This document shows, piece after piece, positions 1,734 to 14,412 of a DNA stretch of 64,000 nucleotides (the stretch's first letter is position 1; the number at the start of each line of letters is the position of its first letter). The stretch comes from Verrucomicrobiales bacterium (GTDB lineage Bacteria; Verrucomicrobiota; Verrucomicrobiia; Limisphaerales; UBA9464). The stretch covers positions 905-64,904 of the forward strand of contig SXSK01000318.1 of NCBI GenBank assembly GCA_005793375.1, read 5' to 3'. The translations under genes were made by a program, and so were the position numbers. The notes under the pieces were generated by a model. It did not search any database and had not been told where the DNA came from. It worked only from the letters and a program-made list of their open reading frames with translations.

Positions 1734-1784
1734 CGTGATGAAGACTTCACACACGGCGCAGAATTGACGACGCTTCGTAACCCA

Positions 1785-3548
1785 ATGGCCACCACCAACC
1801 CCCCAGCTGAATTGCTCCATCGCATGGTGACCGACAAACAATTGTCGGCTGCGGATGCGAATGCCCTTACCCAGCCCTCAAACGGGTTGGCAGCGGCGGG
1901 GGTTGGTGGTTCCATGGACTCCGAGTCGGATATCCTACGGTGGTTGGCGCAGGAATACGGCCTGGGGTTTTCCACGCTCGAGGATGTAGAGCCTGAGAAG
2001 GAGGTGTTGGGGTTGTTTCCTGCTCGGATACTTCTCAAAGAAGACCTGCTACCGCTGAGACGAACCAACGGTTTGATCGAAATCGCCACGTGTCGGCTCT
2101 TTCAAACACAAGGGTTGGATGCTCTCAAAACCATGACTGGGCTGCGGTTGCAGCCGATTTTAGCGACTCGCGAGGCGATCCAACGCGAAATGAAAAAGCG
2201 CCTAGGAGTCGGCGCAGACACCATCGATACCCTTGACGAAGAGACGTCCTTTCAGGTGGTTAGCGATGATAACGACGACAACAACGATCTCGACAGTGCA
2301 GCTGAGGACGCGTCGATCATCCGCTTCGTCAACCAGGTGCTTCGCGATGCGATTGAACTGCGCGCGTCCGACATCCACCTCGAACCTTTCGAAGACGCGT
2401 TACGGATTCGATACCGTATTGACGGTGTGCTCCAAGAAGTGCCGGTGCCCGCGCAAATCAAACGATTTCAACCGGCGATTGTATCCCGCGTCAAAATTCT
2501 GAGCCACCTGAACATCGCCGAAAAGCGGTTGCCGCAGGACGGCCGAATCAAAATTCGCCTGGACGATGCCGAGGTGGATATCCGGGTGTCCGTGATTCCG
2601 ATGCTTCACGGAGAAGCGGTGGTCATGCGTTTGTTGCGGCAGAACTCAACCTTGCGCGGCATGGGACAGTTGGGCCTGGATCCCCGAGATTTGAAGGCGT
2701 TTCGACGGGTGTTGGCATTGCCACACGGGATTGTGCTAGTGACCGGTCCTACCGGAAGCGGCAAGACATCGACGCTTTATACGGCTCTCAATGAGATTAA
2801 TGATGCGGTTCGGAAGATCATTACGATTGAGGATCCCATTGAATACCAGTTACGGGGGATCAACCAGATTCAGGTTTCTGAGAAGGCGGGTCTGACCTTT
2901 TCGCGAGGATTACGTTCCATACTGCGTCACGATCCCGATGTTATTTTGGTGGGTGAAATCCGGGATCGGGAGACTGCGCAGATTGCGGTGCAGGCGTCGC
3001 TGACGGGGCATTTGGTCTTCTCGACGTTGCATACGAACGATGCGCCGGGTGCGCTGACGCGTTTGGTGGACATGGGGGTGGAACCGTATTTGGTGGCGTC
3101 CTCTTTGGAGGCGGTGTTGGCGCAGCGGCTGGTTCGCGTGCTCTGTCCCCATTGCCGCCGGGTGGATACCTCACCAGCGAGCCAGGCGATACACAGTCAG
3201 TTGAAGTTTGGCTCTGATGTCGTGATTTACAAAGCGATTGGTTGCCGGCAGTGCCGCAACACCGGATATCACGGACGTCGCGCCATTTTCGAATGGATGG
3301 ATGCCACTCATGAAGTGCGTCGCCTGATTCTGCGCAATGCATCGAGCGGTGAGATTCGAGATGCTGCGCGGCGCAACGGACTGAGGCTGCTTTCCGAAGA
3401 TGGATGGCGTTTGGTGCGCGAAGGAATCACAACGCCTGAAGAGGTGCTACGGGTTACCAAGGATCAATCGCTCGGGGAAGAGGACGATGCTGCCGCAGCA
3501 GAAATCGTGACGACCACAACGGGTGTTGAAGCGCCGGGCGAGTCGTGA
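1785..3548 (+). CDS. gspE: Type II secretion / type IV pilus assembly ATPase GspE/PilB family
   Basis: N-terminal T2SSE_N/MshEN-like domain, Walker A GPTGSGKTST, Walker B ILVGEIRD, His box GHLVFSTLHTN and a tetracysteine CPHC...CRQC. The track ORF opens at TTG 1764; the first ATG is at 1785. Confidence 0.95.
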   Translation: MATTNPPAELLHRMVTDKQLSAADANALTQPSNGLAAAGVGGSMDSESDILRWLAQEYGLGFSTLEDVEPEKEVLGLFPARILLKEDLLPLRRTNGLIEIATCRLFQTQGLDALKTMTGLRLQPILATREAIQREMKKRLGVGADTIDTLDEETSFQVVSDDNDDNNDLDSAAEDASIIRFVNQVLRDAIELRASDIHLEPFEDALRIRYRIDGVLQEVPVPAQIKRFQPAIVSRVKILSHLNIAEKRLPQDGRIKIRLDDAEVDIRVSVIPMLHGEAVVMRLLRQNSTLRGMGQLGLDPRDLKAFRRVLALPHGIVLVTGPTGSGKTSTLYTALNEINDAVRKIITIEDPIEYQLRGINQIQVSEKAGLTFSRGLRSILRHDPDVILVGEIRDRETAQIAVQASLTGHLVFSTLHTNDAPGALTRLVDMGVEPYLVASSLEAVLAQRLVRVLCPHCRRVDTSPASQAIHSQLKFGSDVVIYKAIGCRQCRNTGYHGRRAIFEWMDATHEVRRLILRNASSGEIRDAARRNGLRLLSEDGWRLVREGITTPEEVLRVTKDQSLGEEDDAAAAEIVTTTTGVEAPGES

Positions 3549-3555
3549 AACGATC

Positions 3556-4884
3556 ATGGCACTTTATCAATACCGCGCACTTCAGTCTGACGGCCGAATC
3601 ACCGAAGGTGAACTTGAGGCGGGTGGGCGCCAGGAGGCGTTGCGCCAGATAGAGGGCCGCGGATTGCGTCCCGTTCGGCTGAAAGAAGGTAGCGGGCCGA
3701 GCAACAGTTCTTCCTCGGGTGCCAGCTCACGCTCCGGCAGTCGGTCCTCCGGGCGGGAATCGGGACGCGACAACGGGAGGCCCAAGGAAAAGGATGCGGC
3801 TTCCAAGACCGCTGCTGGCAAGTCCTTTCAGCTGGGAGGTTCGGGCAAGATAACCGCCCGAATGTTGGAGAATTTTACGAGATTGCTTTCGAGCCTGCTC
3901 GCCGCCGGGGTGCCTTTAGGGCGCGCCCTGGTGATCCTCGTCAAGGAAGCCTCGTCCCCAGCTGCCGGAGCCCAGTGGAAAAAAGTCCACGACCTCGTGG
4001 TGGATGGGTTGTCGTTGGCGGATGCCATGGCCCGGTCTCCTGAGACATTCCCCCGGGTTTATACGGCCATGGTTGAGGCGGGGGAAACCGGTGGATTTTT
4101 GGACGTCGTGCTGGCTCAGATCGCCGACTTTCAGGCGCGCGAGAAAGAGATGCGATCCAAGGTGATGACCGCCCTGATGTATCCGATGATCTTGCTCTTC
4201 CTGGCGCTGGCGGTCTTGGTTTTCTTGATGGTGTTTTTCATCCCTCGCTTTCAGACAATATTTACCGGGTTTGGCGCTAAACTACCATTACTCACCCAAC
4301 TGATTGTCAGCACGAGCGAATTCATGCGCAGTTATGGGTTGTTCGCAGTGGTGGGTCTGGGTATTGGCGGCTACATGCTGAGGACTTGGTTTCTTTCCGA
4401 GCAGGGGCGCCGCAGCTGGGAGGGGTTGATCCTGCGCTCTCCCGTCGTGGGTTCGTTGGTGGCACAATTTGCGATGGCGCGTTTTTGCCGGATGCTGGGC
4501 ACGTTACTAGGGGCGGGTGTGCCTTTGGTCAATGGGCTCAATGTCGCCCGGCGGTCCATCGGTAACCAGATCCTGGTGGACGCGGTCTCTAATTCCATCG
4601 AGCGCGTGAAAGAGGGCAAACAACTGGGCCCGAGCCTGGGCGATTGCCGCACATTGTTCTCTGGATCGACGCTGGAAATGATCTCGGTCGCTGAGGAAAG
4701 CGGACGTTTGGATGCTGAGTTGGTACGGATTGCAAACGTGACGGAGTCGGATTTGGACCGCCAATTGAAGACGGCGGTCGCTTTAGCGGAGCCGCTGATG
4801 CTCTTTTTGATCGCGGGGTTTATCGGCACTATTTTTATCGGCATGGTCATTCCGATTTTTTCGCTGCAAGACCATATCAAGTAA
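3556..4884 (+). CDS. gspF: Inner-membrane platform protein GspF/PilC family
   Basis: Canonical N-terminus MALYQYRALQSDGRITEGELEA, two GspF repeats (LSSLLAAGVPLGRAL and LGTLLGAGVPLVNGL) and three TM segments. Carries an unusual Ser/Gly/Arg-rich insertion of roughly 45 aa after the first cytoplasmic subdomain. The first ATG is 8 nt after the gspE stop. Confidence 0.93.
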   Translation: MALYQYRALQSDGRITEGELEAGGRQEALRQIEGRGLRPVRLKEGSGPSNSSSSGASSRSGSRSSGRESGRDNGRPKEKDAASKTAAGKSFQLGGSGKITARMLENFTRLLSSLLAAGVPLGRALVILVKEASSPAAGAQWKKVHDLVVDGLSLADAMARSPETFPRVYTAMVEAGETGGFLDVVLAQIADFQAREKEMRSKVMTALMYPMILLFLALAVLVFLMVFFIPRFQTIFTGFGAKLPLLTQLIVSTSEFMRSYGLFAVVGLGIGGYMLRTWFLSEQGRRSWEGLILRSPVVGSLVAQFAMARFCRMLGTLLGAGVPLVNGLNVARRSIGNQILVDAVSNSIERVKEGKQLGPSLGDCRTLFSGSTLEMISVAEESGRLDAELVRIANVTESDLDRQLKTAVALAEPLMLFLIAGFIGTIFIGMVIPIFSLQDHIK

Positions 4885-4932: not shown

Positions 4933-5412
4933 ATGAAATTGAACGTTTCCTCACGCAATCGTCGCCCTGCGGCGCGGCGGCGTGGCTTCACCCTGATCGA
5001 GCTGCTGTTGGTGCTGGTCATCCTCGGAATTCTTGCGGCGATTGTGGTGCCGAAGTTTTCGGGGCGGACCGAGCAGGCTCGCGTGGCGGCCGTCAAATCC
5101 CAAATCTCCATCCTGGGCACGGCGTTGGACGCATACGAAGTGGACATGGGGTCGTATCCCAAAGGGAAGAGTGGTTTAAATGATCTCCTCAATGCGCCGT
5201 CTGGAGGGGATCTCAACTGGAAAGGTCCCTACATAAAGAACGAGATTCCCAAGGATCCTTGGGGAAATGATTACATCTACGAGTTTCCTGGGAAACATGG
5301 GGGTGGCACCAAGAACAGCGCAGCTTCCTACGATCTCATGTCGATGGGACCGGACGGACGAGTTGGCGGAGACGATGACATCACGAGTTGGGACAACGCG
5401 AATCGACGCTGA
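4933..5412 (+). CDS. gspG: Major pseudopilin GspG
   Basis: Prepilin leader plus RRRG|FTLIELLLVLVILGILAAIVVP, and the GspG signature PKDPWGNDYIY with a terminal DGxxGxDDDI calcium-site-like motif. Confidence 0.93.
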   Translation: MKLNVSSRNRRPAARRRGFTLIELLLVLVILGILAAIVVPKFSGRTEQARVAAVKSQISILGTALDAYEVDMGSYPKGKSGLNDLLNAPSGGDLNWKGPYIKNEIPKDPWGNDYIYEFPGKHGGGTKNSAASYDLMSMGPDGRVGGDDDITSWDNANRR

Positions 5413-6040
5413 TCGACCTCGGTCGATGGCTGCTTTCACGCTGATCGAACTGATCTGCGTGATGAGTTTGCTGATCATCGTTGTCGGAGTGGTCTCGCCA
5501 TCACTGTCGGGGTTTTACCGTGGTCGAAACTTGGATTCTGAAGTGCGACGGTTTTATTCACTGACGCTGTATGGCCAACAACGAGCGATTTCTGAAGGCA
5601 TGCCGATGCTGCTCTGGATTGATCCAGACGAGCGGCGGTATGGATTACAGGCGGAATTCTCCTTCCAGCAACAGGACGAAAAGTCGGTGGACTACCGGCT
5701 CGATGAGAATGTGGCTGTACAATTTGAGCGAGGTGCGGTGGCAGGCGGGTTTGGCTTGGGGTCCGGTTCCGCCTCCACGTCGAGTTCTGCACAGCGAGGA
5801 ACGTCGTCGAGTGTCGTCCGTGCGGCGGCACAGGCGTCACGATTCGGTCGAAACACAGGGATTTTGCGATTTGAAGCGGATGGGTCGATTGACTCGAGCA
5901 GTCCATTGGCGGTCGGATTCTATGATCAAGACAAAACGGGTATGCGGGAGAGCGATCGCCGCAAGAGTGTCTGGGTGGGTCAGCGCCTTAACGGGTTGAG
6001 TTATGAGATTCAGACCAATCAAACAGCCTATGCGCGCTGA
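5375..6040 (+). CDS. Minor pseudopilin, GspH-like (prepilin-type N-terminal domain)
   Basis: Has ...RPRSMAA|FTLIELICVMSLLIIVVGVVSP. Start uncertain: ATG 5375 gives a 20-aa basic leader and overlaps the gspG 3' end, while ATG 5426 gives a 3-aa leader. Ala rather than Gly precedes the FTLIE. Confidence 0.75.
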   Translation: MTSRVGTTRIDADRPRSMAAFTLIELICVMSLLIIVVGVVSPSLSGFYRGRNLDSEVRRFYSLTLYGQQRAISEGMPMLLWIDPDERRYGLQAEFSFQQQDEKSVDYRLDENVAVQFERGAVAGGFGLGSGSASTSSSAQRGTSSSVVRAAAQASRFGRNTGILRFEADGSIDSSSPLAVGFYDQDKTGMRESDRRKSVWVGQRLNGLSYEIQTNQTAYAR

Positions 6041-6446
6041 AGGCATCCTCCGGGATCGTCGCCAGGTGGCGCGCCGTCAACTGACGGCTGGGTTTACGTT
6101 GGTCGAAGCACTGGCGTCGCTCGCTTTTTTGTCCATCGTGATTCCGGTGGCGGTACAGGGGCTTCGGATAGGTAACTTGGCTGGACAGGTCGCGGAGCGC
6201 AAATCGGACGCAGCCCGCATTGGAGACAAGGTGCTGAGCGAGCTGGTCGCCACTAGACAGTGGCAACAGGCAGCATCCAGTGGAAGCGTTGAAGAAGCGG
6301 GTCGGGAATTTCGCTGGCAGCTCCAGACCACCAGTTGGAACAAGGAAGCCATGCGTCAGCTTACCCTGATCGTGACGTATGCGGTTCAGGGCCAATCCTA
6401 TGATGTGCGTCTCAGCACGCTGGTGGATCCGTCGGCTGAATTATGA
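6003..6446 (+). CDS. Minor pseudopilin, GspI-like
   Basis: RRQLTAG|FTLVEALASLAFLSIVIPV and a small (about 110 aa) mature domain. Overlaps the upstream stop; an alternative ATG is at 6030. Confidence 0.8.
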   Translation: MRFRPIKQPMRAEGILRDRRQVARRQLTAGFTLVEALASLAFLSIVIPVAVQGLRIGNLAGQVAERKSDAARIGDKVLSELVATRQWQQAASSGSVEEAGREFRWQLQTTSWNKEAMRQLTLIVTYAVQGQSYDVRLSTLVDPSAEL

Positions 6447-7195
6447 TGTCGCACCCCCCAGTTACCGCCGGTAGTCGTTTGGAACGTCGTGCATTCACCT
6501 TGCTTGAATTGCTACTCGCCATCGCCGTGTTTGCTGTTGTTTTGTCGGCGATCAACGGGGTGTTCTGGGGTGCCTTGCGGCTCCGCAACAAGACCAGCCA
6601 AATGTTGGAGCGATCCGTTCCAGTGAACCAGGCGATGCTGATTCTTCGACGTGATCTTGCCGGAATTCTGCCCCCTGGCGGCACATTTGCTGGTCAATTC
6701 AAAAGCGATGTCACATCGATCGATACCACTTGGGGCACTCCGACCGGACCTGAGATTCGGACGACAACGGGACGCGTCGATGAGTTGCAGCCGTGGGGGG
6801 AAGTCCAAAAGGTCGTGTATTACCTGCGGCCGCCCACCAATGGGATGAGCGCTGTGGGTTTTGATCTGCTCCGAGTGATCACTCGAAACTTGGCGCCAGC
6901 GCTGGCAGAGGAACAGGTCGCGCAGACCTTGATGAGTGGTGTCACCGAAATGACTTTTGAATATTACGACGGGAGCAGTTGGCGGACGACCTGGGATTCG
7001 ACGACTGAAACCACGGTCTTGCCTCGGGCAATTCGAGTTCAAATGCAGTTGGCGGACCAGGATCCTGAGGGAGGTACGCCAACCTCGGGCATGTTGCGAG
7101 TGAGCCGAAAACCTCTGGAGCTAGTGGTCCCCCTTTTGGTGCGGCCCGGCACGAATCAAACTCAAATCGCTTCTGCGGGAACGACCACGCCATGA
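6443..7195 (+). CDS. Minor pseudopilin, GspJ-like
   Basis: LERRA|FTLLELLLAIAVFAVVLSAINGVF with a mature domain of about 220 aa. The ATG overlaps the upstream TGA (ATGATG/TGA coupling). Confidence 0.8.
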   Translation: MMSHPPVTAGSRLERRAFTLLELLLAIAVFAVVLSAINGVFWGALRLRNKTSQMLERSVPVNQAMLILRRDLAGILPPGGTFAGQFKSDVTSIDTTWGTPTGPEIRTTTGRVDELQPWGEVQKVVYYLRPPTNGMSAVGFDLLRVITRNLAPALAEEQVAQTLMSGVTEMTFEYYDGSSWRTTWDSTTETTVLPRAIRVQMQLADQDPEGGTPTSGMLRVSRKPLELVVPLLVRPGTNQTQIASAGTTTP

Positions 7196-8562
7196 AAGCC
7201 GTGCCGCTGTTCCGATCTATGGTCGCAGAGAATCGGCGACAGGCTGAGGGTTCAGTCTTGGTGATCGTACTCTGGATTTCGCTCGGCTTGGTGAGTTTGG
7301 CGATTTATTTCGCCCAGACGACATCCCTGGCGCTCAAAGCGTCTGACCAGCGCTTGGCAGGGCTTGAGGCGGAACGGGTGATGGAAGGGGCGACGCGCTA
7401 TCTCTCGTATGTTCTTGCCAACACGGAACAACATGGCGTACCGCCGCTGATCCAAAATTATTTGCGCGACGCAGTTGGGGTTGGCGACGCGACTTTCTGG
7501 CTGGTGGGCCGGGATCCCCAGCAAGTGAATCCCAACGCTCCCTACTTCGGTTTGGTCGACGAAAGTTCCAAACTGAATCTGAATACGGCTACTCAGGAAA
7601 TGCTGGAGCTGTTGCCGATCCCGGGGATTAACGAGGTGGCGTCGGCAATTCTAGACTGGCGTGACGCCGATTCCGAGGTGCGGACTGGCGGGGCTGAGGA
7701 TGAGACCTATTTACGTTTGAACCCACCTTATCGGTGCAAAAACGGAAACTTCGAAACCATTGACGAGCTTCGCCAAGTCAAAGGAGTTGCCATGGAGATG
7801 CTTTATGGCGAGGACGCCAATCGCAACGGCGTGTTGGATCCGAACGAAAACGATGGTGACGCCACGCCGCCGAGCGACAATCGCGATGGTCGATTGGATC
7901 CGGGGCTGGTAGAGTATCTCACTGCGTTCAGTCGTGAATCAAACCTGACGACCAATGGAACTCAGAGGGTGAATATGGTGGGAGCTGGTGCTGCACGCCG
8001 TGCGGCTACCGTGTTACAACAGAAGTTTGGTGCGGCTCGCTCCAACGAGATTTTGGCGCGGCTTGGGAATGCCAATGTGCAGTCGGTTCTCGAGTTCTTC
8101 ATCCGCAGCCAGATGACCGCGGATGAATTTGCCCAGATTGGGCCGGAGTTGACGATGTCGAATGGCTCGTCGCAGGCGGGATTGGTGAATGTGAACACGG
8201 CCAGCGAAGCGGTGCTGGCCTGTATCCCGGGTATTGGCGTGAATAATGCGCCTCAGCTGGTGAGTTATCGGCTGTCGAATCCGGACAAACTGACTTCGGT
8301 GGCCTGGGTGGCGGAAGTATTGGATCGGGCGAGTGCCTTCCGGGCGGGGCCTTATCTGACCGGATATAGTTACCAATACACTGCGGACATTTCGGCGACG
8401 GGCCGGCTCGGGCGGGGGTATCGTCGGTGGCAGGTGGTGTTGGACACCACCGAGACGGTACCCCGAGTAATTTATCAACGCGACTTGAGCTACCTGGGTT
8501 GGGCCTTGGGACAGCAAGTGCGGACACAACAACAACAGCAGTTGGCGAGAATGACCCGATGA
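7192..8562 (+). CDS. gspK: GspK-like minor pseudopilin (no cleavable FTLIE motif, helix-hairpin-helix modules)
   Basis: N-terminal TM SVLVIVLWISLGLVSLAIYF, then LNLNTATQEMLELLPIPGI and VNVNTASEAVLACIPGIG, the repeats typical of GspK. Overlaps the gspJ-like stop by 4 nt. Confidence 0.85.
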   Translation: MKAVPLFRSMVAENRRQAEGSVLVIVLWISLGLVSLAIYFAQTTSLALKASDQRLAGLEAERVMEGATRYLSYVLANTEQHGVPPLIQNYLRDAVGVGDATFWLVGRDPQQVNPNAPYFGLVDESSKLNLNTATQEMLELLPIPGINEVASAILDWRDADSEVRTGGAEDETYLRLNPPYRCKNGNFETIDELRQVKGVAMEMLYGEDANRNGVLDPNENDGDATPPSDNRDGRLDPGLVEYLTAFSRESNLTTNGTQRVNMVGAGAARRAATVLQQKFGAARSNEILARLGNANVQSVLEFFIRSQMTADEFAQIGPELTMSNGSSQAGLVNVNTASEAVLACIPGIGVNNAPQLVSYRLSNPDKLTSVAWVAEVLDRASAFRAGPYLTGYSYQYTADISATGRLGRGYRRWQVVLDTTETVPRVIYQRDLSYLGWALGQQVRTQQQQQLARMTR

Positions 8563-9998
8563 AGCATTGGCTCCAAAAGAAACGTGGGACGTCGGTGTTG
8601 GGGCTCAGCCTCGACGGCCTGCGACTGGATGGCGTCTGGGTCCGTCGCACCAATGGTTCCGCTCAGGTCGCGCGCACCTTTTCGATTATCCTCACCAAGG
8701 ATCTTCTGGGCCCGGAAGGGGGAGCTGCGGCGCTGGAACTTCGTCAGCAGTTGGACAAACACGAGATCCGCGAACGTCAGTGTGCCGTCTGCTTGCCGAT
8801 GTCCTGGGTGCTCGGGGTGTCGACTCCCTTGCCGGAATTGCCTGAAGAAGATGTGCCGGAATTCCTCGATCTCGAGGCGGAACGAGTTTTTCCGTATGCT
8901 CCAGAAGATCTAGTGATGGTTCGCTCGCACTTTCAAACGCCCAGTGGTGGTAAGCATGGGACGCAGTTGGCGGTAGCGCGCGAGAACATTCAGAAATTGG
9001 AACTGGCACTGCGCTCTGCGCGCCTGGTGCCGGTGGCGTTTTCCGTGGGATTGCCCTTGATTGACCAGGCTCTAGCCACTCAGCCGAATTCGGGGGTTAC
9101 GCTTTCAGTGGATCGTTGCGTGATCGGCTTGATGGTTACGGCGGGTGGTGGGATCGCCGCGTTGAGAACACTGGCGACTGCTGTCGAAGTCGGTGAAAAC
9201 GGGCCGAAAATCGACACAGAATCCCTCGGGCGGGAATTGCGCATCAGCCTGGGTCAATTGCCGCCGGATGTCCGCGAGGTGGTGACGCAGTTGCGCGTGA
9301 TTGGTAGCAGGCAATTTGCGGATGTTTTAGCGACTGGGCTAAAATCCCGCGCCGCAACCCTGGGCTTGGCGACTGAGTGTCCCACGCGTTATGCTCCCGG
9401 GCGGCTGGGGGTGAGTGTTCCCGGTGACATCGCGCCGACTCCGGAACTCACGCTCGCCCTGCGTTATGTCACTCGTTCTCTGGGTGATCTGGATTTTTTG
9501 CCGCCACGAATTTCTGGCTGGCAAACTCTGGTCAGCAAGTATTCGTCGAGGAAATTGGCCTATACCGCTATGGTAGCGGGCGCGCTGGCGGCCGTGACCG
9601 TGTGTTTGTTTCTGGTGCAACAAGTTCAGCTGATGCGCTTGGAGTCGCAATGGAAGGAAATTGCGCCGAAAGTGCGCGAGATCGACGAATTTCGCCTCCA
9701 AATCAAACGCTTTCGACCTTGGTACGATGAGTCCTTCCGAAACCTGAGCATCTTGAAACGGTTGGCGGAGGTATTCCCAGAGGATGGGGCTGTTACAGCC
9801 AAGTCGGTCGAGTTACAGGAAACTGGCGCTGTGAGTTGCTCTGGTACGGCCCGCGACAGCGAGTCGTTGACTAAGATGCTGGATCAACTTCGTTCCACAC
9901 CTAGTATTGGCGAAGTACAGGTTGACCAACTCCGCGGAAGGGCCCCTCTCCAATTCACCTTTAATTTTCAATGGGCCAGTAATGGCCGTCAGCCATGA
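8559..9998 (+). CDS. Assembly-platform protein: PilM-like actin-fold domain fused to TM plus PilN-like periplasmic domain (GspL equivalent)
   Basis: ATG 8559 overlaps the gspK TGA (ATGA). N-terminus VLGLSLDGLRLDGVWV...LDLEAERVFPY is PilM/GspL-like. A single TM (LAYTAMVAGALAAVTVCLFLV) is followed by a coiled-coil and ferredoxin-like tail. The upstream 44 codons of the track ORF overlap gspK and look non-coding. Confidence 0.8.
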   Translation: MKHWLQKKRGTSVLGLSLDGLRLDGVWVRRTNGSAQVARTFSIILTKDLLGPEGGAAALELRQQLDKHEIRERQCAVCLPMSWVLGVSTPLPELPEEDVPEFLDLEAERVFPYAPEDLVMVRSHFQTPSGGKHGTQLAVARENIQKLELALRSARLVPVAFSVGLPLIDQALATQPNSGVTLSVDRCVIGLMVTAGGGIAALRTLATAVEVGENGPKIDTESLGRELRISLGQLPPDVREVVTQLRVIGSRQFADVLATGLKSRAATLGLATECPTRYAPGRLGVSVPGDIAPTPELTLALRYVTRSLGDLDFLPPRISGWQTLVSKYSSRKLAYTAMVAGALAAVTVCLFLVQQVQLMRLESQWKEIAPKVREIDEFRLQIKRFRPWYDESFRNLSILKRLAEVFPEDGAVTAKSVELQETGAVSCSGTARDSESLTKMLDQLRSTPSIGEVQVDQLRGRAPLQFTFNFQWASNGRQP

Positions 9999-10534
9999 AT
10001 TTCGATCCCAAGAACCGCCAGCACCTGCTCTTGATCATTGCCGCGATCGGCGTGGCGCTGCTTGCTGGAGATCGTTTGGTGCTGTCGCCGCTCGTCAAAG
10101 CGTGGCAAGACCGAACCACGCGGCTCGCGAAGTTGAGCCGTGATATAGATCAAGGCCGTCAATTGCTCCTCAGTGAACGCTCAGTTCGCGATCGATGGGA
10201 TTCCATGCGGACCAATACGCTTCCCGAGGATGTCTCGATAGCGGAAGGTGGCGTGCTAAAAGCGTTTGATCGGTGGTCGCGGGAAAGTCGCATTAGCATC
10301 ACTTCCGTGAAGCCTCAGTGGAAGCGCAATGCCGAGGATCACGTCACCCTGGAGTGCCGCGTGGATGCCTTCGGCAGTCTCAGCACCCTCGCGCGGTTCT
10401 TGTATGAAGTGGAACGCGACCCTCTCGCATTGCGCGTCGACTTGGTGGAGATCACGTCACGCGATAGCGAGGGCGCCCAACTAACCCTTGGCCTGCAGGT
10501 TAGCGGACTGCTGCTAAACCCACCGGAACTATGA
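9995..10534 (+). CDS. PilO/GspM-like bitopic platform protein
   Basis: 179 aa with N-terminal TM LLLIIAAIGVALLAG, then a coiled-coil and a small alpha/beta domain. Has a 4-nt overlap with both neighbours. Confidence 0.7.
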   Translation: MNFDPKNRQHLLLIIAAIGVALLAGDRLVLSPLVKAWQDRTTRLAKLSRDIDQGRQLLLSERSVRDRWDSMRTNTLPEDVSIAEGGVLKAFDRWSRESRISITSVKPQWKRNAEDHVTLECRVDAFGSLSTLARFLYEVERDPLALRVDLVEITSRDSEGAQLTLGLQVSGLLLNPPEL

Positions 10535-11499
10535 ACGATCTCCACTTTCCGCTGAGTCGGCCCGCTCACTTGACCTCGATATCCTTCCTCAGGGGTTCTT
10601 CCAGGGGCTCGTTTCGTTGGGTGAAATCCCTTCGTGTCGCCCTATCCATGGTCGGGTTGGTGACGCATTGGACATCAGGCAACGCGGCTGATGAAACGGT
10701 GCCGGCGATTCCAACCGAAAACAGCGCCGCAGCGATCCTAGAAGAGAAACCGCGATCCGACTCGACTGCCGACCTGATTGCCACCGAGCCTGACAGGGCA
10801 GCGACGACGAACTCGGTTCCCTCGCCGAATCCAACGGTCAGTGATCCGACCAAAACAAATGGGCCTACCACGACAGCCAAGGAGTCGGATGAAAAGCGAG
10901 ATTCGCGCAGCCGAGAGCGAGAGCGGGATCGACGGCGTCGTGAGCGATCCGGTGCTTCCGCATCTGAATCCATGTCGGAGTCGAAGACCAACGCCGCTGT
11001 GCTCTCGAAGGCCGATTTTGCGGCCTACAAGATCATTACGGATCGCAACATTTTCAGCCCGAGTCGAACAACGCCTTCGGAGGCGAAGAGTGAGACGCGT
11101 CGGGTGCCGAAGGTGGATTCCTTTTGGTTGGTAGGGACCATGAGTTACGACAAGGGTGACTTTGCCTTTTTCGATGGCAGTGATGGGGACTATCGTAAGG
11201 CGATTAAGATCCCCGGAACGATCGCGGGCCATACCATCACAGAAGTCACTGCGGAAGAGGTCACATTGGAGTTTGAAGGGAAGGCTTTGAGGATGCGAAT
11301 GGGATCGCAGCGGCGGCGGGAAGACGCTGGCACCTGGGAGTCTCGCGCTGGGTCAACGATCTCATCGACATCCACGGGGGATTCCCCGACTAGCGGGAGC
11401 GAGAGCGGTACTGAATCCAGCTCCGGTGGAGCTGAGGATGAAATTTTGCAACGGCTACTGAAGAAACGCGAACAGGAGTTGAAAAATGAAAAACCCTAA
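10531..11499 (+). CDS. PilP/GspC-like protein with Arg/Ser/Glu-rich low-complexity linker
   Basis: The C-terminal beta domain FWLVGTMSYDKGDFAFFDGSDGDYRKAIKIPGTIAGHTITEVTAEEVTLEFEG resembles the PilP/GspC HR domain. Central KRDSRSRERERDRRRRERS tract. Position in the operon is just before the secretin. Confidence 0.6.
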   Translation: MNDLHFPLSRPAHLTSISFLRGSSRGSFRWVKSLRVALSMVGLVTHWTSGNAADETVPAIPTENSAAAILEEKPRSDSTADLIATEPDRAATTNSVPSPNPTVSDPTKTNGPTTTAKESDEKRDSRSRERERDRRRRERSGASASESMSESKTNAAVLSKADFAAYKIITDRNIFSPSRTTPSEAKSETRRVPKVDSFWLVGTMSYDKGDFAFFDGSDGDYRKAIKIPGTIAGHTITEVTAEEVTLEFEGKALRMRMGSQRRREDAGTWESRAGSTISSTSTGDSPTSGSESGTESSSGGAEDEILQRLLKKREQELKNEKP

Positions 11500-13150
11500 A
11501 AACTTCCCCTTCTGGTGCTGGCTGATGGTCGGCCTGCTGACCACGGCTGGCCTCCAAGCGCAGGATGCCGAAAAGTCTATTTCCGACACACCTAAATTGG
11601 AGTCCGCCGCTGAATCTGCGGCCACCAAAGACAAAGAACCGGATGTCGACTCCACTCCGGTGCCCCGGTCCCGGGCCGCGCGAACCTCACCGGCATCCGA
11701 ACCCGCCATGCGCCCGGGCGAAGATCGCATGTTGCGCCTCAATTTTCGGGGTGTTCCATTGGAGATGGTTCTCAATTACCTGAGCGATGCGGCTGGCTTC
11801 ATCATCCTGCTCGAGACGGAAGTGAAAGGCAAAGTCGACGTGTGGAGCAATCAACCGGTCACCCAGACGGAAGCGCTTAAGATTCTGGACAGTGTCCTCA
11901 GCAAGAATGGTTATGCGGCGATCCGAAATGAACGGACACTCACCATTGTGAGCAAAGACAGCGCGAAGAAGAGGGACATCCCGGTGAAAACCGGGGCCAA
12001 TCCGTCATCGATCCCCAAGTCCGAGGAAATCGTCACGCAAATCATTCCGATCCGGTTTATCAGCGCATCGCAATTGACCCAAAACCTGCAGTCGCTGCTA
12101 CCGTCTTCGGCGGAGTTGACGGCCAACGAAGCGGGCAACGCGTTGATCATGACGGATACGCAGACGAGCATACGCCGCATCGCTGAAATCGTTCGGGCAT
12201 TGGATACTTCCATTGCTGGAGCGAGCACCATCCGGGTGTATCCCTTGCGTTTTGCCGATTCCAAAGAGTTGGTGAATGTGATCAAGGAATTATTTCCCGC
12301 CCAGGATTCTCGAACTGGTGGGAACACGGGTGGATTTGCCGGCGGATTTGGTGGTCGAAACGGCGGTGGTTTTGGAGGATTTCCCGGCGCTGGTGCCAAC
12401 TTCGGTGGTGGTGGTGGCAACAACCGCGGTGGCACAAGCAGCGGTTCGAATAACCGGGCGAGCGCTTCGAGGGTCGTTGCCGTCGCGGATGAGCGGAGCA
12501 ATTCCGTGATTGTGAATGCGCCGGATGATGTCTTGCCAGAAATTGAGGAATTGATCAACAAGGTCGATACCAGTGTGGAAGATATTACCGAACTTCGGGT
12601 GTTTAAGCTGCGGTACGCCGACCCGAGCGAGATGGCGGATGTGCTGACAGGATTGTTTCCGGATGAATCGAGCAGCACGGATGCGTCGAGGTCGCAGGTT
12701 CGCTTTGGGGGTGCATTTGGTGGGTTCGGTGGGACCCGGGGCGGGGCGGCGGCCAGTGGAAGTGAACGGGCCAAGAAGAAGGGCAAAGTCATTGCCATTC
12801 CGGATGCCCGGACCAGTTCAATCATTGTCAGTGCGGCGCATGAACTGATGGATCAGATTGGTGAGATGGTGGCCCAATTGGATTCGAATCCTGCGCGCAA
12901 ACAGAAGGTATTTGTCTATGACCTGCAGAATGCAGATCCGCAGCAGGTACAGGAAGTATTGCGGAATCTGTTCGAGAGCCAGCAGCAGCAAAGTCGGAAC
13001 AATCGTAGCGGCAACCAGAATCAAAGCAGTGCGCTCAGCACGCGAGCCACGCAGCAGAACAATAACAATAATCGAACCACCACGGGGTTCGGTGGTGGTG
13101 GTGGTGGCGGCGGCGCCGGTGGGGGTGCTGGCCGCGCTGGTGGTCCCTAG
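11486..13150 (+). CDS. Secretin N-domain protein (N0 plus about four N1-N3-type modules), lacks the secretin beta-barrel domain
   Basis: Signal peptide MKNPKNFPFWCWLMVGLLTTAGLQAQ and N0-like LNFRGVPLEMVLNYLSDAAGFIILLE. Repeated modules include IRVYPLRFADSKELVNVIKELF...VVAVADERSNSVIVNAPDDVLPEIEELINKVD. Gly-rich linkers; ends in GFGGGGGGGGAGGGAGRAGGP followed by TAG. Confidence 0.88.
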   Translation: MKNPKNFPFWCWLMVGLLTTAGLQAQDAEKSISDTPKLESAAESAATKDKEPDVDSTPVPRSRAARTSPASEPAMRPGEDRMLRLNFRGVPLEMVLNYLSDAAGFIILLETEVKGKVDVWSNQPVTQTEALKILDSVLSKNGYAAIRNERTLTIVSKDSAKKRDIPVKTGANPSSIPKSEEIVTQIIPIRFISASQLTQNLQSLLPSSAELTANEAGNALIMTDTQTSIRRIAEIVRALDTSIAGASTIRVYPLRFADSKELVNVIKELFPAQDSRTGGNTGGFAGGFGGRNGGGFGGFPGAGANFGGGGGNNRGGTSSGSNNRASASRVVAVADERSNSVIVNAPDDVLPEIEELINKVDTSVEDITELRVFKLRYADPSEMADVLTGLFPDESSSTDASRSQVRFGGAFGGFGGTRGGAAASGSERAKKKGKVIAIPDARTSSIIVSAAHELMDQIGEMVAQLDSNPARKQKVFVYDLQNADPQQVQEVLRNLFESQQQQSRNNRSGNQNQSSALSTRATQQNNNNNRTTTGFGGGGGGGGAGGGAGRAGGP

Positions 13151-13194
13151 TCTGAGATGTCCTGATTCCTCAAAAATATTTTCACGCCAAATTC

Positions 13195-14412
13195 ATGAGT
13201 CTTTCTTTCCATCGTCTAGGAACTCGGTTGACCGCCTCGCTCGGCCTGCTGATGTGTATCGGACAGCTTTGCGTCGTCGCTCAATTTCAAGGTGGCGGCG
13301 GCGGTGCGACGCGTCGCGCCGGCTCCGGCACGGGCCAAACCACCCGTGAGTACCCCAATAATACGCAGGTTGGTGATGCCATGATTTCGATCGATCCGGA
13401 AACCCGGAAGATCATTGTGGTCACCGATGACGAAACCAACCTCCAGATCAAGGACGTGATACAGAGTTTGGATCAACCGCGTCCGCAGGTGCTCATTAAG
13501 GTGGTGTTTCTGGAAGTCACGCACAACAACAGCTCGGACATTGGCGTGGAGGGCGGGTACGTGAAGGGTATCGGCGGCGGGGCTCAAGGCAGCATTGCCA
13601 ATGCGTTCGGCGCGTCCCCACTCAGCCTAGCAGCCACCGGCGCTGTAAATAATGTTCTCGGTCAAAACATTCAGAACTTCTCACCCACACCGCCCGGCGC
13701 GGGGTTGTATCAGATCCTCGGCTCCGACTATCAAGTGGCACTCCGAGCTATTGCTCAGGCTGGCAAGGCCGAAATACTTTCACGCCCGTCGATCCTGGCT
13801 CGCAACAATCAACCGGCAACCATCAGTCTCGGCCAACAGGTGCCGTTGGTCAGCAATACGCGCTTCGATGCCGTGAACGGTCAGATCAATACGGTCACTT
13901 ATCAGAGCGTCGGTATTATCCTTCGGGTCACCCCGTTCATCACGCCCGACGGTCTTGTCGAAATGATTGTCTCACCCGAAACATCCCAACTTGCCGATCG
14001 CAGCCAATGGGTGCCCATTTCCAAAGATGCCCTCGCCCCAGTCATTAATTCGCGTCTCGCAGACACCGTCGTCGTGGTGCCCGACGGTCAAACGGTAATT
14101 ATTGGTGGTCTGATGGAGACCCAGATGAACACCTCCGAAAGCAAAGTTCCGCTGCTCGGCGACATCCCCTGGCTTGGCAACGCTTTCAAGCGCAAGCAAA
14201 AGCAGAGTGTGAAAACGGAGCTGATGATTTTCCTGACTCCGCATATTGTTGCGGCTCCGTCTCAACTGGCCGGTTTGACAGCGGATGAGCGCAAGAATTC
14301 GTTGCTGAAACCTAAGTCGATTTCCGAAGAGGAACTGCATCGCATCATTGATGGCATCCCTATCAAGGACCCCAAGGCCGAGGATTCCAAGTCGTCACGG
14401 AAGCGCCGATGA
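13195..14412 (+). CDS. gspD: Secretin C-domain protein (outer-membrane pore part of GspD/PilQ family) with its own signal peptide
   Basis: Signal peptide MSLSFHRLGTRLTASLGLLMCIGQLCVVAQ and one N3-like half module ISIDPETRKIIVVTDDETNLQIKDVIQSLD. The secretin domain follows: ILSRPSILARNNQPATISLGQQVP...VGIILRVTPFITPDGLVEMIVSPE...VVVPDGQTVIIGGLM...KVPLLGDIPWLGNAFK...ELMIFLTPHIV. Confidence 0.9.
   Translation: MSLSFHRLGTRLTASLGLLMCIGQLCVVAQFQGGGGGATRRAGSGTGQTTREYPNNTQVGDAMISIDPETRKIIVVTDDETNLQIKDVIQSLDQPRPQVLIKVVFLEVTHNNSSDIGVEGGYVKGIGGGAQGSIANAFGASPLSLAATGAVNNVLGQNIQNFSPTPPGAGLYQILGSDYQVALRAIAQAGKAEILSRPSILARNNQPATISLGQQVPLVSNTRFDAVNGQINTVTYQSVGIILRVTPFITPDGLVEMIVSPETSQLADRSQWVPISKDALAPVINSRLADTVVVVPDGQTVIIGGLMETQMNTSESKVPLLGDIPWLGNAFKRKQKQSVKTELMIFLTPHIVAAPSQLAGLTADERKNSLLKPKSISEEELHRIIDGIPIKDPKAEDSKSSRKRR

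Follow-up and report, generated by a model that had tools for sequence, protein, structure and literature searches.

The type II secretion secretin of a Verrucomicrobiota clade is encoded by two adjacent genes carrying complementary halves of one N module: a probable ancient fission of gspD

The window analysed here, a stretch of 64,000 nucleotides (nt) of contig SXSK01000318.1 from a Verrucomicrobiales bacterium, contains two adjacent open reading frames (ORFs), here named ORF1 and ORF2, which encode the secretin of a type II secretion system (T2SS). The T2SS secretin GspD is a multimeric (~15-mer) gated outer-membrane pore. In the window the periplasmic domains are encoded by ORF1 and the pore by ORF2, and the two chains carry complementary half-domains of one N module. 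Comparison with related genomes shows that the split is genuine and makes it probable that gspD, the secretin gene, underwent an ancient fission that has been conserved in a clade of Verrucomicrobiota, with a two-chain pore in which the shared module would be rebuilt. A preliminary description of this region had proposed that the secretin is encoded as two polypeptides with a leader each, and this was borne out: both genes were found in 36 loci, and each has a conserved Sec-type leader. That the half module of ORF1 is the exact complement of the one of ORF2 had not been noticed there. The features of the two genes and their junction (aa, amino acids) are the following.

11486-13150, plus strand: ORF1, secretin N-domain protein of 554 aa, with no pore domain
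11486-11560, plus strand: signal peptide of ORF1, aa 1-25 (MKNPKNFPFWCWLMVGLLTTAGLQA, followed by QD), by sequence inspection
11738-11935, plus strand: N0 domain of ORF1, aa 85-150, PF21305
12029-12883, plus strand: three complete Secretin_N modules of ORF1, from Pfam Secretin_N and PDB alignments; approximate limits by inspection, N1 ~aa 182-240, N2 ~aa 247-361, N3 ~aa 368-466
12902-12973, plus strand: N4a, first half (beta1-alpha1, KVFVYDLQNADPQQVQEVLRNLF) of the fourth Secretin_N module, from the profile match
12974-13150, plus strand: Asn/Gln/Gly-rich C-terminal tail of ORF1 (aa 497-554, 58 residues) and TAG stop
13151-13194, no strand: intergenic spacer, 44 nt, 36% GC
13195-14412, plus strand: ORF2, secretin pore protein of 405 aa
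13195-13281, plus strand: signal peptide of ORF2, aa 1-29 (MSLSFHRLGTRLTASLGLLMCIGQLCVVA, followed by QF), by inspection
13282-13365, plus strand: Gly-rich linker of ORF2 and conserved REYPNNT motif, aa 30-57
13366-13476, plus strand: N4b, second half (beta2-beta3-alpha2) of the fourth Secretin_N module, aa 58-94
13477-14277, plus strand: secretin pore region of ORF2, aa 95-361, PF00263 and TIGR02517
13747-14250, plus strand: Pfam Secretin match in ORF2, aa 185-352
14278-14412, plus strand: variable, basic C-terminal tail of ORF2 (aa 362-405) and stop codon

ORF1 stops at a TAG codon (13148-13150) and, as had been described, does so without a pore domain; the Secretin pore domain was not found in this protein by comparison with Pfam. 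Its N0 domain matched PF21305 with 49.8 bits (cut-off, 27) and aligned with the N0 domain of solved GspD structures, and Secretin_N (PF03958) matched with 153.6 bits over four stretches. The preliminary description had assigned to ORF1 a signal peptide, an N0 domain and about four N modules; the first two stand, and the N modules were found to be three complete ones plus the first half of a fourth. After the AT-rich spacer (57% GC is the value for the window), ORF2 contains, in agreement with that description, a leader, an N3-like half module and the secretin domain (PF00263, 170 bits). No N0 domain was found in ORF2 in the Pfam comparison, and the whole-protein scan gave a half-length Secretin_N match only (profile positions 29-69 of 69). 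The N0 model identified ORF1, the Secretin model ORF2 and the Secretin_N model both proteins. The NCBIfam equivalog model for GspD (TIGR02517, 600 positions, cut-off 351.35 bits) was matched by ORF1 at positions 1-295 with 223.7 bits and by ORF2 at positions 277-599 with 242.2 bits, both below the cut-off. An in-silico fusion of ORF1 and mature ORF2 gave 467.8 bits, and only this artificial fusion, neither chain alone, reached the cut-off. The best PDB matches of the ORF2 pore, both by sequence and by fold, were T2SS GspD structures such as 5WLN, 6I1X, 5WQ7 and 5ZDH, with E values of about 1e-19 for the fold matches of the ORF2 model to GspD structures.

The tail of ORF1 and the head of ORF2 were scanned apart with the Secretin_N profile (cut-off 28.2 bits) and then joined with the loop trimmed. 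N4a alone matched positions 1-26 (20.3 bits) and N4b alone matched positions 28-69 (21.4 bits), whereas the joined halves covered positions 1-69 with 43.2 bits. In addition, the first folded residues of ORF2 aligned with the second half of the N3 domain of XcpQ (5WLN), right after the Gly-rich loop of XcpQ. These complementary matches, together with the XcpQ alignment, indicate that the break in the gene falls within the loop joining alpha1 and beta2 in the last N module. The N2 and N3 modules of ORF1 also contain a Gly-rich insertion in each alpha1-beta2 loop. Low-complexity insertions occupy this loop in every N module after N1 (12302-12466, 12665-12784, 12974-13147 and 13282-13365); their Gly content is 25-42%, versus 3% in the folded parts, and motifs of the GFGG/FGGF type occur 7, 4 and 2 times in them. 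At ~15 subunits, dozens of disordered Gly/Phe-rich loops would surround the periplasmic vestibule.

Inspection of the two leaders revealed in both a basic n-region, a hydrophobic core and an A-x-A cleavage site followed by Q. The signal peptide of ORF1 is present in 94% of the homologues with a variable sequence, and the ORF2 leader follows the same pattern among 120 homologues, its sequence varying and its presence being near-constant. ORF2-type leaders ending in A-x-A before Q were found at 36 of 36 orthologous loci and also in L048, the divergent locus described below; in the 36 loci their 12-residue Kyte-Doolittle maximum ranged from 1.8 to 3.1. From these sequence features and their conservation, the ORF2 leader is predicted to be a Sec (signal peptidase I) signal peptide. 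A lipoprotein signal on ORF2 was considered and rejected, the orthologues having no conserved lipobox Cys. In the pore proteins the leader is followed by a Gly-rich tract and a conserved (R)xYPNNTQVGDA motif, and the beginning of ORF2 shows the same order, with leader, Gly-rich linker and then ISIDPETRKIIVVTDDETNLQIKDVIQSLD. Between the ATG of ORF2 and the preceding stop in the same frame no other start codon was found, and no promoter- or terminator-like sites were found when the junction was scanned. Long ORFs in other frames overlap the secretin genes at 12858-13349 (plus strand) and 11911-12825 (minus strand), one of them, of 163 aa, bridging the junction; these are probably by-products of GC-rich coding sequence and not a linking gene.

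Conservation of the split was assessed by scanning one genome per species, which provided 46 loci; the details of the junction were taken from the 36 that have both genes. In all 39 loci with an ORF2 relative of at least 48% identity, the pore gene lies in its own stop-to-stop segment, and wherever upstream DNA is available the ORF1 homologue ends just before the pore gene, the two genes being adjacent. The succession of stop, spacer, ATG and hydrophobic leader was present in 36 of 36 loci with both genes. A comparison of orthologous Verrucomicrobiota loci had been proposed in the preliminary description, and in it the split and the second leader were kept throughout; the closest relatives do not carry one continuous ORF. 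Among these loci are one on a complete chromosome (L008, OZ260084.1) and one from a Canu long-read assembly (L031). In the protein searches, the best 120 homologues of ORF2 measured 282-462 aa (most of them ~400-450) and contained the Secretin domain only, down to 60% identity, and the best 120 of ORF1 measured 448-617 aa, with N0 and Secretin_N only. A divergent split form, L048 (1238-5398), lies on the complete 6.0-Mb chromosome OW818685.1; its pore protein (P0266) is 44% identical, and it has an N-domain protein of 894 aa, a 78-nt spacer and the break inside the same module. The N-domain protein of L048, at this length, has more N modules, and a histidine kinase and a sigma-54 response regulator are encoded directly downstream of its split secretin.

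One important question is whether the break is real. It lies in a Gly-rich, low-complexity and GC-rich stretch, an easy site for indels, and a sequencing or assembly indel, or a recent pseudogene, might have interrupted a gspD that is continuous in reality or was so until recently. This explanation is effectively refuted, and we assign it a negligible probability. The split was found in the 36 loci from independent assemblies and in L048, with differing stop codons, frames and spacers; the short leader-bearing forms make up ~30 clusters at 50% identity with the leader conserved in all of them; identical copies of the two proteins of the window are present on 4 and 3 contigs; and both pieces are under strong constraint (see below). 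The earlier argument against a frameshifted pseudogene is thus upheld on broader grounds, namely the split in every related locus, the variation of spacer, stop and frame, and the strong purifying selection.

The stop codons of the ORF1 homologues in the 36 loci are TGA in 17, TAG in 10 and TAA in 9, and the frame of the pore gene relative to that of the ORF1 homologue is +2 in 18, 0 in 12 and +1 in 6. The spacers measure 4-98 nt, with ~500-800 nt in three genomes. Programmed recoding, by stop-codon read-through or ribosomal frameshift, would yield one full-length chain, and the 12 loci in the same frame, several of them with a single in-frame stop between the ORFs, would be compatible with it. 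We consider it highly improbable, since neither the relative frame nor the stop codon is constant, each of the three stops occurring, and the spacer length goes from 4 to ~800 nt. The window itself has ORF1 and ORF2 in different reading frames, with several stops in each frame between them. The variable spacers already point to no conserved slippery site or stimulatory RNA structure, and a read-through product would bury the hydrophobic leader in a periplasmic loop. The three long spacers contain GC-rich inserts (L027:2768-3577, L029:1565-2061 and L030:5057-5862, ~500-800 nt), in which only repeat-like sequence and no convincing gene was found when they were checked for coding. Both strands of these inserts yield similar peptide-like strings, which suggests an inverted-repeat element or one resembling a miniature inverted-repeat transposable element. 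Physical separation of the two secretin genes is evidently tolerated.

As the preliminary description had pointed out, Gly-rich tracts flank the break both upstream and downstream. The ORF1 tail (12974-13150) is the upstream stump of the broken loop and the ORF2 linker (13282-13365) the downstream stump, and both are loosely conserved. The tails of the ORF1 homologues end in a Gly-rich ...GR(xN) at the stop. These conserved C-termini, together with the Gly-rich mature N-termini of the ORF2 homologues, are all that speaks for a periplasmic activity of the transpeptidase type that would covalently rejoin the two exported chains at their Gly-rich ends. We give this possibility very little credence, because no ligase, sortase-like or intein signatures were seen in the profile scans of the operon, the tails are poorly conserved, the ORF1 tail of the window ends otherwise (...GRAGGP) and the low-complexity composition is inherited from the ancestral loop.

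Selection on the pieces was assessed per region as identity to the window and entropy (bits) over 120 homologues of each ORF.

N4a half, end of ORF1: identity 0.77, entropy 0.75
N3 beta1-alpha1, intact module: identity 0.75, entropy 0.74
N4b half, start of ORF2: identity 0.73, entropy 0.93
N2 second half, intact module: identity 0.70, entropy 0.91
N3 second half, intact module: identity 0.68, entropy 0.83
C-terminal tail of ORF1: identity 0.48, entropy 1.50
Gly-rich linker of ORF2: identity 0.45, entropy 1.52
Signal peptide of ORF1: identity 0.24, entropy 2.65
Leader of ORF2: identity 0.20, entropy 2.57

The orphan halves N4a and N4b are under the same degree of constraint as their counterparts in intact modules. 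Both ORF1 and ORF2 are under strong purifying selection; the C-terminal tail of ORF2 (aa 362-405) showed an identity of 0.44.

In order to analyse the origin of the split, the pore protein was searched exhaustively over 1.84 billion representatives. The 26 best representatives were all of 480 aa or less; the first one-chain relative (P0267, 895 aa) appeared at 46% identity, and below it one-chain forms prevail. When the pore domains were placed on a neighbour-joining tree, a single bipartition separated 35 leaves from the other 88. The smaller side contained 33 short leader-bearing forms, 2 unclassifiable ones and no one-chain protein, and the larger side 62 one-chain forms, 22 unclassifiable ones and 4 short forms that resemble fragments. 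This topology fits a single fission. The nearest one-chain relatives have N0 and the same N modules with Gly-rich loops, and in their last module an unbroken loop of 100-130 aa, rich in Gly, Asn and Ser, is situated exactly at the break of the window. According to database labels, several of which are evidently wrong among metagenome-assembled genomes, the clade of split forms belongs to the Limisphaerales- and Pedosphaera-like lineages of Verrucomicrobiota. The ancestor would have been a one-chain secretin with N0, four Secretin_N modules and a pore, whose last N module had a very long disordered Gly/Asn/Ser-rich loop from alpha1 to beta2. Inside that cut-tolerant loop a stop codon would have appeared and, after a short spacer, a new start with a Sec signal peptide. 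The search also returned the reverse of the split form, giant predicted proteins of 3,400-5,500 aa which end in a secretin domain 32-46% identical to ORF2 (P0310, P0352, P0358, P0367, P0376, P0377, P0380 and P0385).

The assembly that we propose would proceed as follows. ORF1 and ORF2 would be exported separately by Sec and cleaved after Ala25 and Ala29, respectively, giving a periplasmic N-domain protein that ends in a half module and a pore protein that starts with the other half. ORF2 would multimerise into the outer-membrane pore, and ORF1 would dock beneath it one-to-one, its beta1-alpha1 completing the beta2-beta3-alpha2 of ORF2, so that one N module is formed from two chains. The remaining ORF1 modules would form the periplasmic rings, and N0 would link to the inner-membrane platform through a GspC-like protein, as the N0 domain of GspD is known to bind GspC (PMC8134430). 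The position of the break inside the last N module argues for co-assembly more strongly than the preliminary description had allowed, even if co-assembly is something that we infer. Pore assembly reportedly needs the last N domain (PMC8134430); pore formation would consequently depend on the arrival of the N-ring protein, a built-in assembly checkpoint. As a tentative model, with somewhat less than an even chance of being correct, we put forward a channel for which both proteins are obligatory and whose last N module comes together in the periplasm, by split-domain complementation, from chains exported one by one.

Several points limit the case for the fission and the proposed assembly. We infer the production, export, cleavage, stoichiometry and mutual binding of the two proteins from their sequences. 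The pore-domain tree was built by neighbour-joining and is without bootstrap support. No Shine-Dalgarno-like motif precedes ORF2, and such motifs were found before only 3 of 36 ORF2 orthologues; this says nothing against translation of ORF2, because the motif is equally rare before the other long ORFs of the window (5 of 25 have one). Structural modelling with AlphaFold2 did not show a completed module. A single-sequence run of a chimera of the ORF1 tail and mature ORF2 gave a mean pLDDT (predicted local distance difference test) of 35.9. When an alignment of the window chimera with one-chain relatives and the homologues of the two ORFs was supplied, the ORF2-derived part, including N4b and the pore, was modelled with pLDDT >90, and the ORF1-derived part remained unfolded (pLDDT 30-50). 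The intact N3 module was left unfolded as well, and the chimera is for that reason uninformative on complementation rather than contrary to it.

It might also be that both proteins are real and share no domain, ORF2 being a self-sufficient short pore and ORF1 a separate or loosely stacked scaffold, with the half modules as tolerated remnants. Secretins with few N domains were among the matched structures, such as phage pIV (7ofh) and RcpA (8odn), complementation was not seen in the AlphaFold2 model, and in the Rhc type III secretion system (T3SS) the N-part protein has been proposed as a linker only (PMC3459982). We regard this explanation as unlikely, although clearly less so than recoding or rejoining. 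The half modules are conserved like the halves of intact modules and are not decaying, their profile matches are exactly complementary and additive, and the genes are adjacent in every locus whose upstream region is available. Moreover, half of a small alpha/beta domain, consisting of beta-beta-alpha only, would be unlikely to be stable by itself. Rebuilding of the shared module from the two chains is the reading that we prefer.

ORF1 and ORF2 are the last genes of a complete T2SS operon, and the gene downstream of ORF2 is on the opposite strand. The other genes of the operon, for which some starts are the longest possible, are listed below.

1764-3548, plus strand: GspE, strong NCBIfam match (606 bits), just below cut-off
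3523-4884, plus strand: GspF, strong NCBIfam match (326 bits), just below cut-off
4933-5412, plus strand: GspG, NCBIfam 137 bits, above cut-off
5267-6040, plus strand: GspH-like
6443-7195, plus strand: GspJ, weak NCBIfam match, below cut-off
7192-8562, plus strand: GspK, weak NCBIfam match, below cut-off
8427-9998, plus strand: GspL/PilM-PilN-like
9995-10534, plus strand: GspM, weak NCBIfam match, below cut-off
10531-11499, plus strand: GspC-like, weak NCBIfam match, below cut-off

The first 14 nt of ORF1 (11486-11499) also form the end of the GspC-like gene, an overlap which suggests translational coupling. ORF2, unlike the overlapping ORF1, follows a free AT-rich spacer. The GspK-like protein (7192-8562) also matched the model for ComEA-type helix-hairpin-helix repeats (TIGR01259, 51.7 bits, aa 321-363).

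The preliminary description had contrasted the two-gene arrangement with characterised secretins (GspD, PilQ, InvG and pIV), in which N rings and pore are on one chain. This holds for the secretins named and is not universal, the exceptions being RhcC1/RhcC2 and mitochondrial GspD. The window shares with canonical one-chain GspD proteins (PulD, XcpQ and EpsD) the N0 domain, the Secretin_N modules, the secretin pore and the operon context. It differs from them in that two polypeptides are encoded, with separate export predicted, in having four N modules after N0 instead of three, and in the long Gly-rich loops of N2-N4 and the break inside the last N module. The "split secretin" of the rhizobial-type T3SS consists of RhcC1 (NolW) and RhcC2 (PMC3574062). 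According to Abby and Rocha (PMC3459982), RhcC1 is the N-terminal remnant of a T3SS-type secretin and RhcC2 a complete Tad-type secretin (BON + secretin) acquired later, and the two genes are not adjacent; the N-part protein has been suggested to connect the pore with the inner-membrane ring (PMC3574062, PMC3459982). In both cases the periplasmic N-part and the pore part of a bacterial secretion machine are separate gene products. In the window, by contrast, both pieces come from a single ancestor of the GspD type, their genes are neighbours and the break divides one module, and complementary half-domains are not reported for RhcC1/RhcC2. The best family of ORF2 is GspD (242 bits) and not the Tad-type secretin, no BON domain was matched in the profile scans of ORF2, ORF1 and ORF2 both match the same one-chain relatives, and the neighbouring genes are those of a T2SS, not of a T3SS.

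The second precedent is the mitochondrial T2SS (miT2SS) of eukaryotes, in which GspD is fragmented into GspD/GspDL and GspDN1-3 (PMC8134430). There, GspDN3 corresponds to the N-terminal half of a Secretin_N domain and GspDN2 to its C-terminal half, and a GspD-GspDN1 interaction was reported by yeast two-hybrid (PMC8134430). Both systems have a T2SS secretin fragmented into several polypeptides. The miT2SS proteins, however, are nuclear-encoded in eukaryotes, targeted to mitochondria and devoid of N0 and GspC, whereas the window has a bacterial operon with N0 and a weak GspC-like gene. The mitochondrial pieces are small stand-alone proteins with other cut points, and here the half modules are at the ends of large proteins. 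The bacterial origin of the miT2SS is regarded as unsettled (PMC8134430), and the chance is very slim, at best, that the mitochondrial GspD fragments descend from a bacterial GspD of this type, already broken at an N-module loop. In the freely accessible papers searched, a split T2SS secretin was not found described, nor was the two-gene arrangement in papers on secretins or GspD and Verrucomicrobia. The RhcC1/RhcC2 and miT2SS precedents limit the novelty of the finding; the arrangement reported here is distinct from both, being a bacterial T2SS secretin with fission in place, adjacent genes, a cut inside one module and a leader on each protein.

Annotation pipelines label the two halves "secretin N-terminal domain-containing protein", "hypothetical protein" or "GspD", and tools that evaluate T2SS completeness may miscount these systems. 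The assembly of secretin ring and pore and their coupling to the inner-membrane platform are still debated. With the split form one can ask directly if the N rings may be provided in trans and if two chains can refold a divided N module, and its layout is a design hint for controllable split secretins. In these bacteria, evolution has cut the protein at the junction of ring and pore, inside a module reported to be needed for pore assembly, and, on the showing of hundreds of sequences, the arrangement works.

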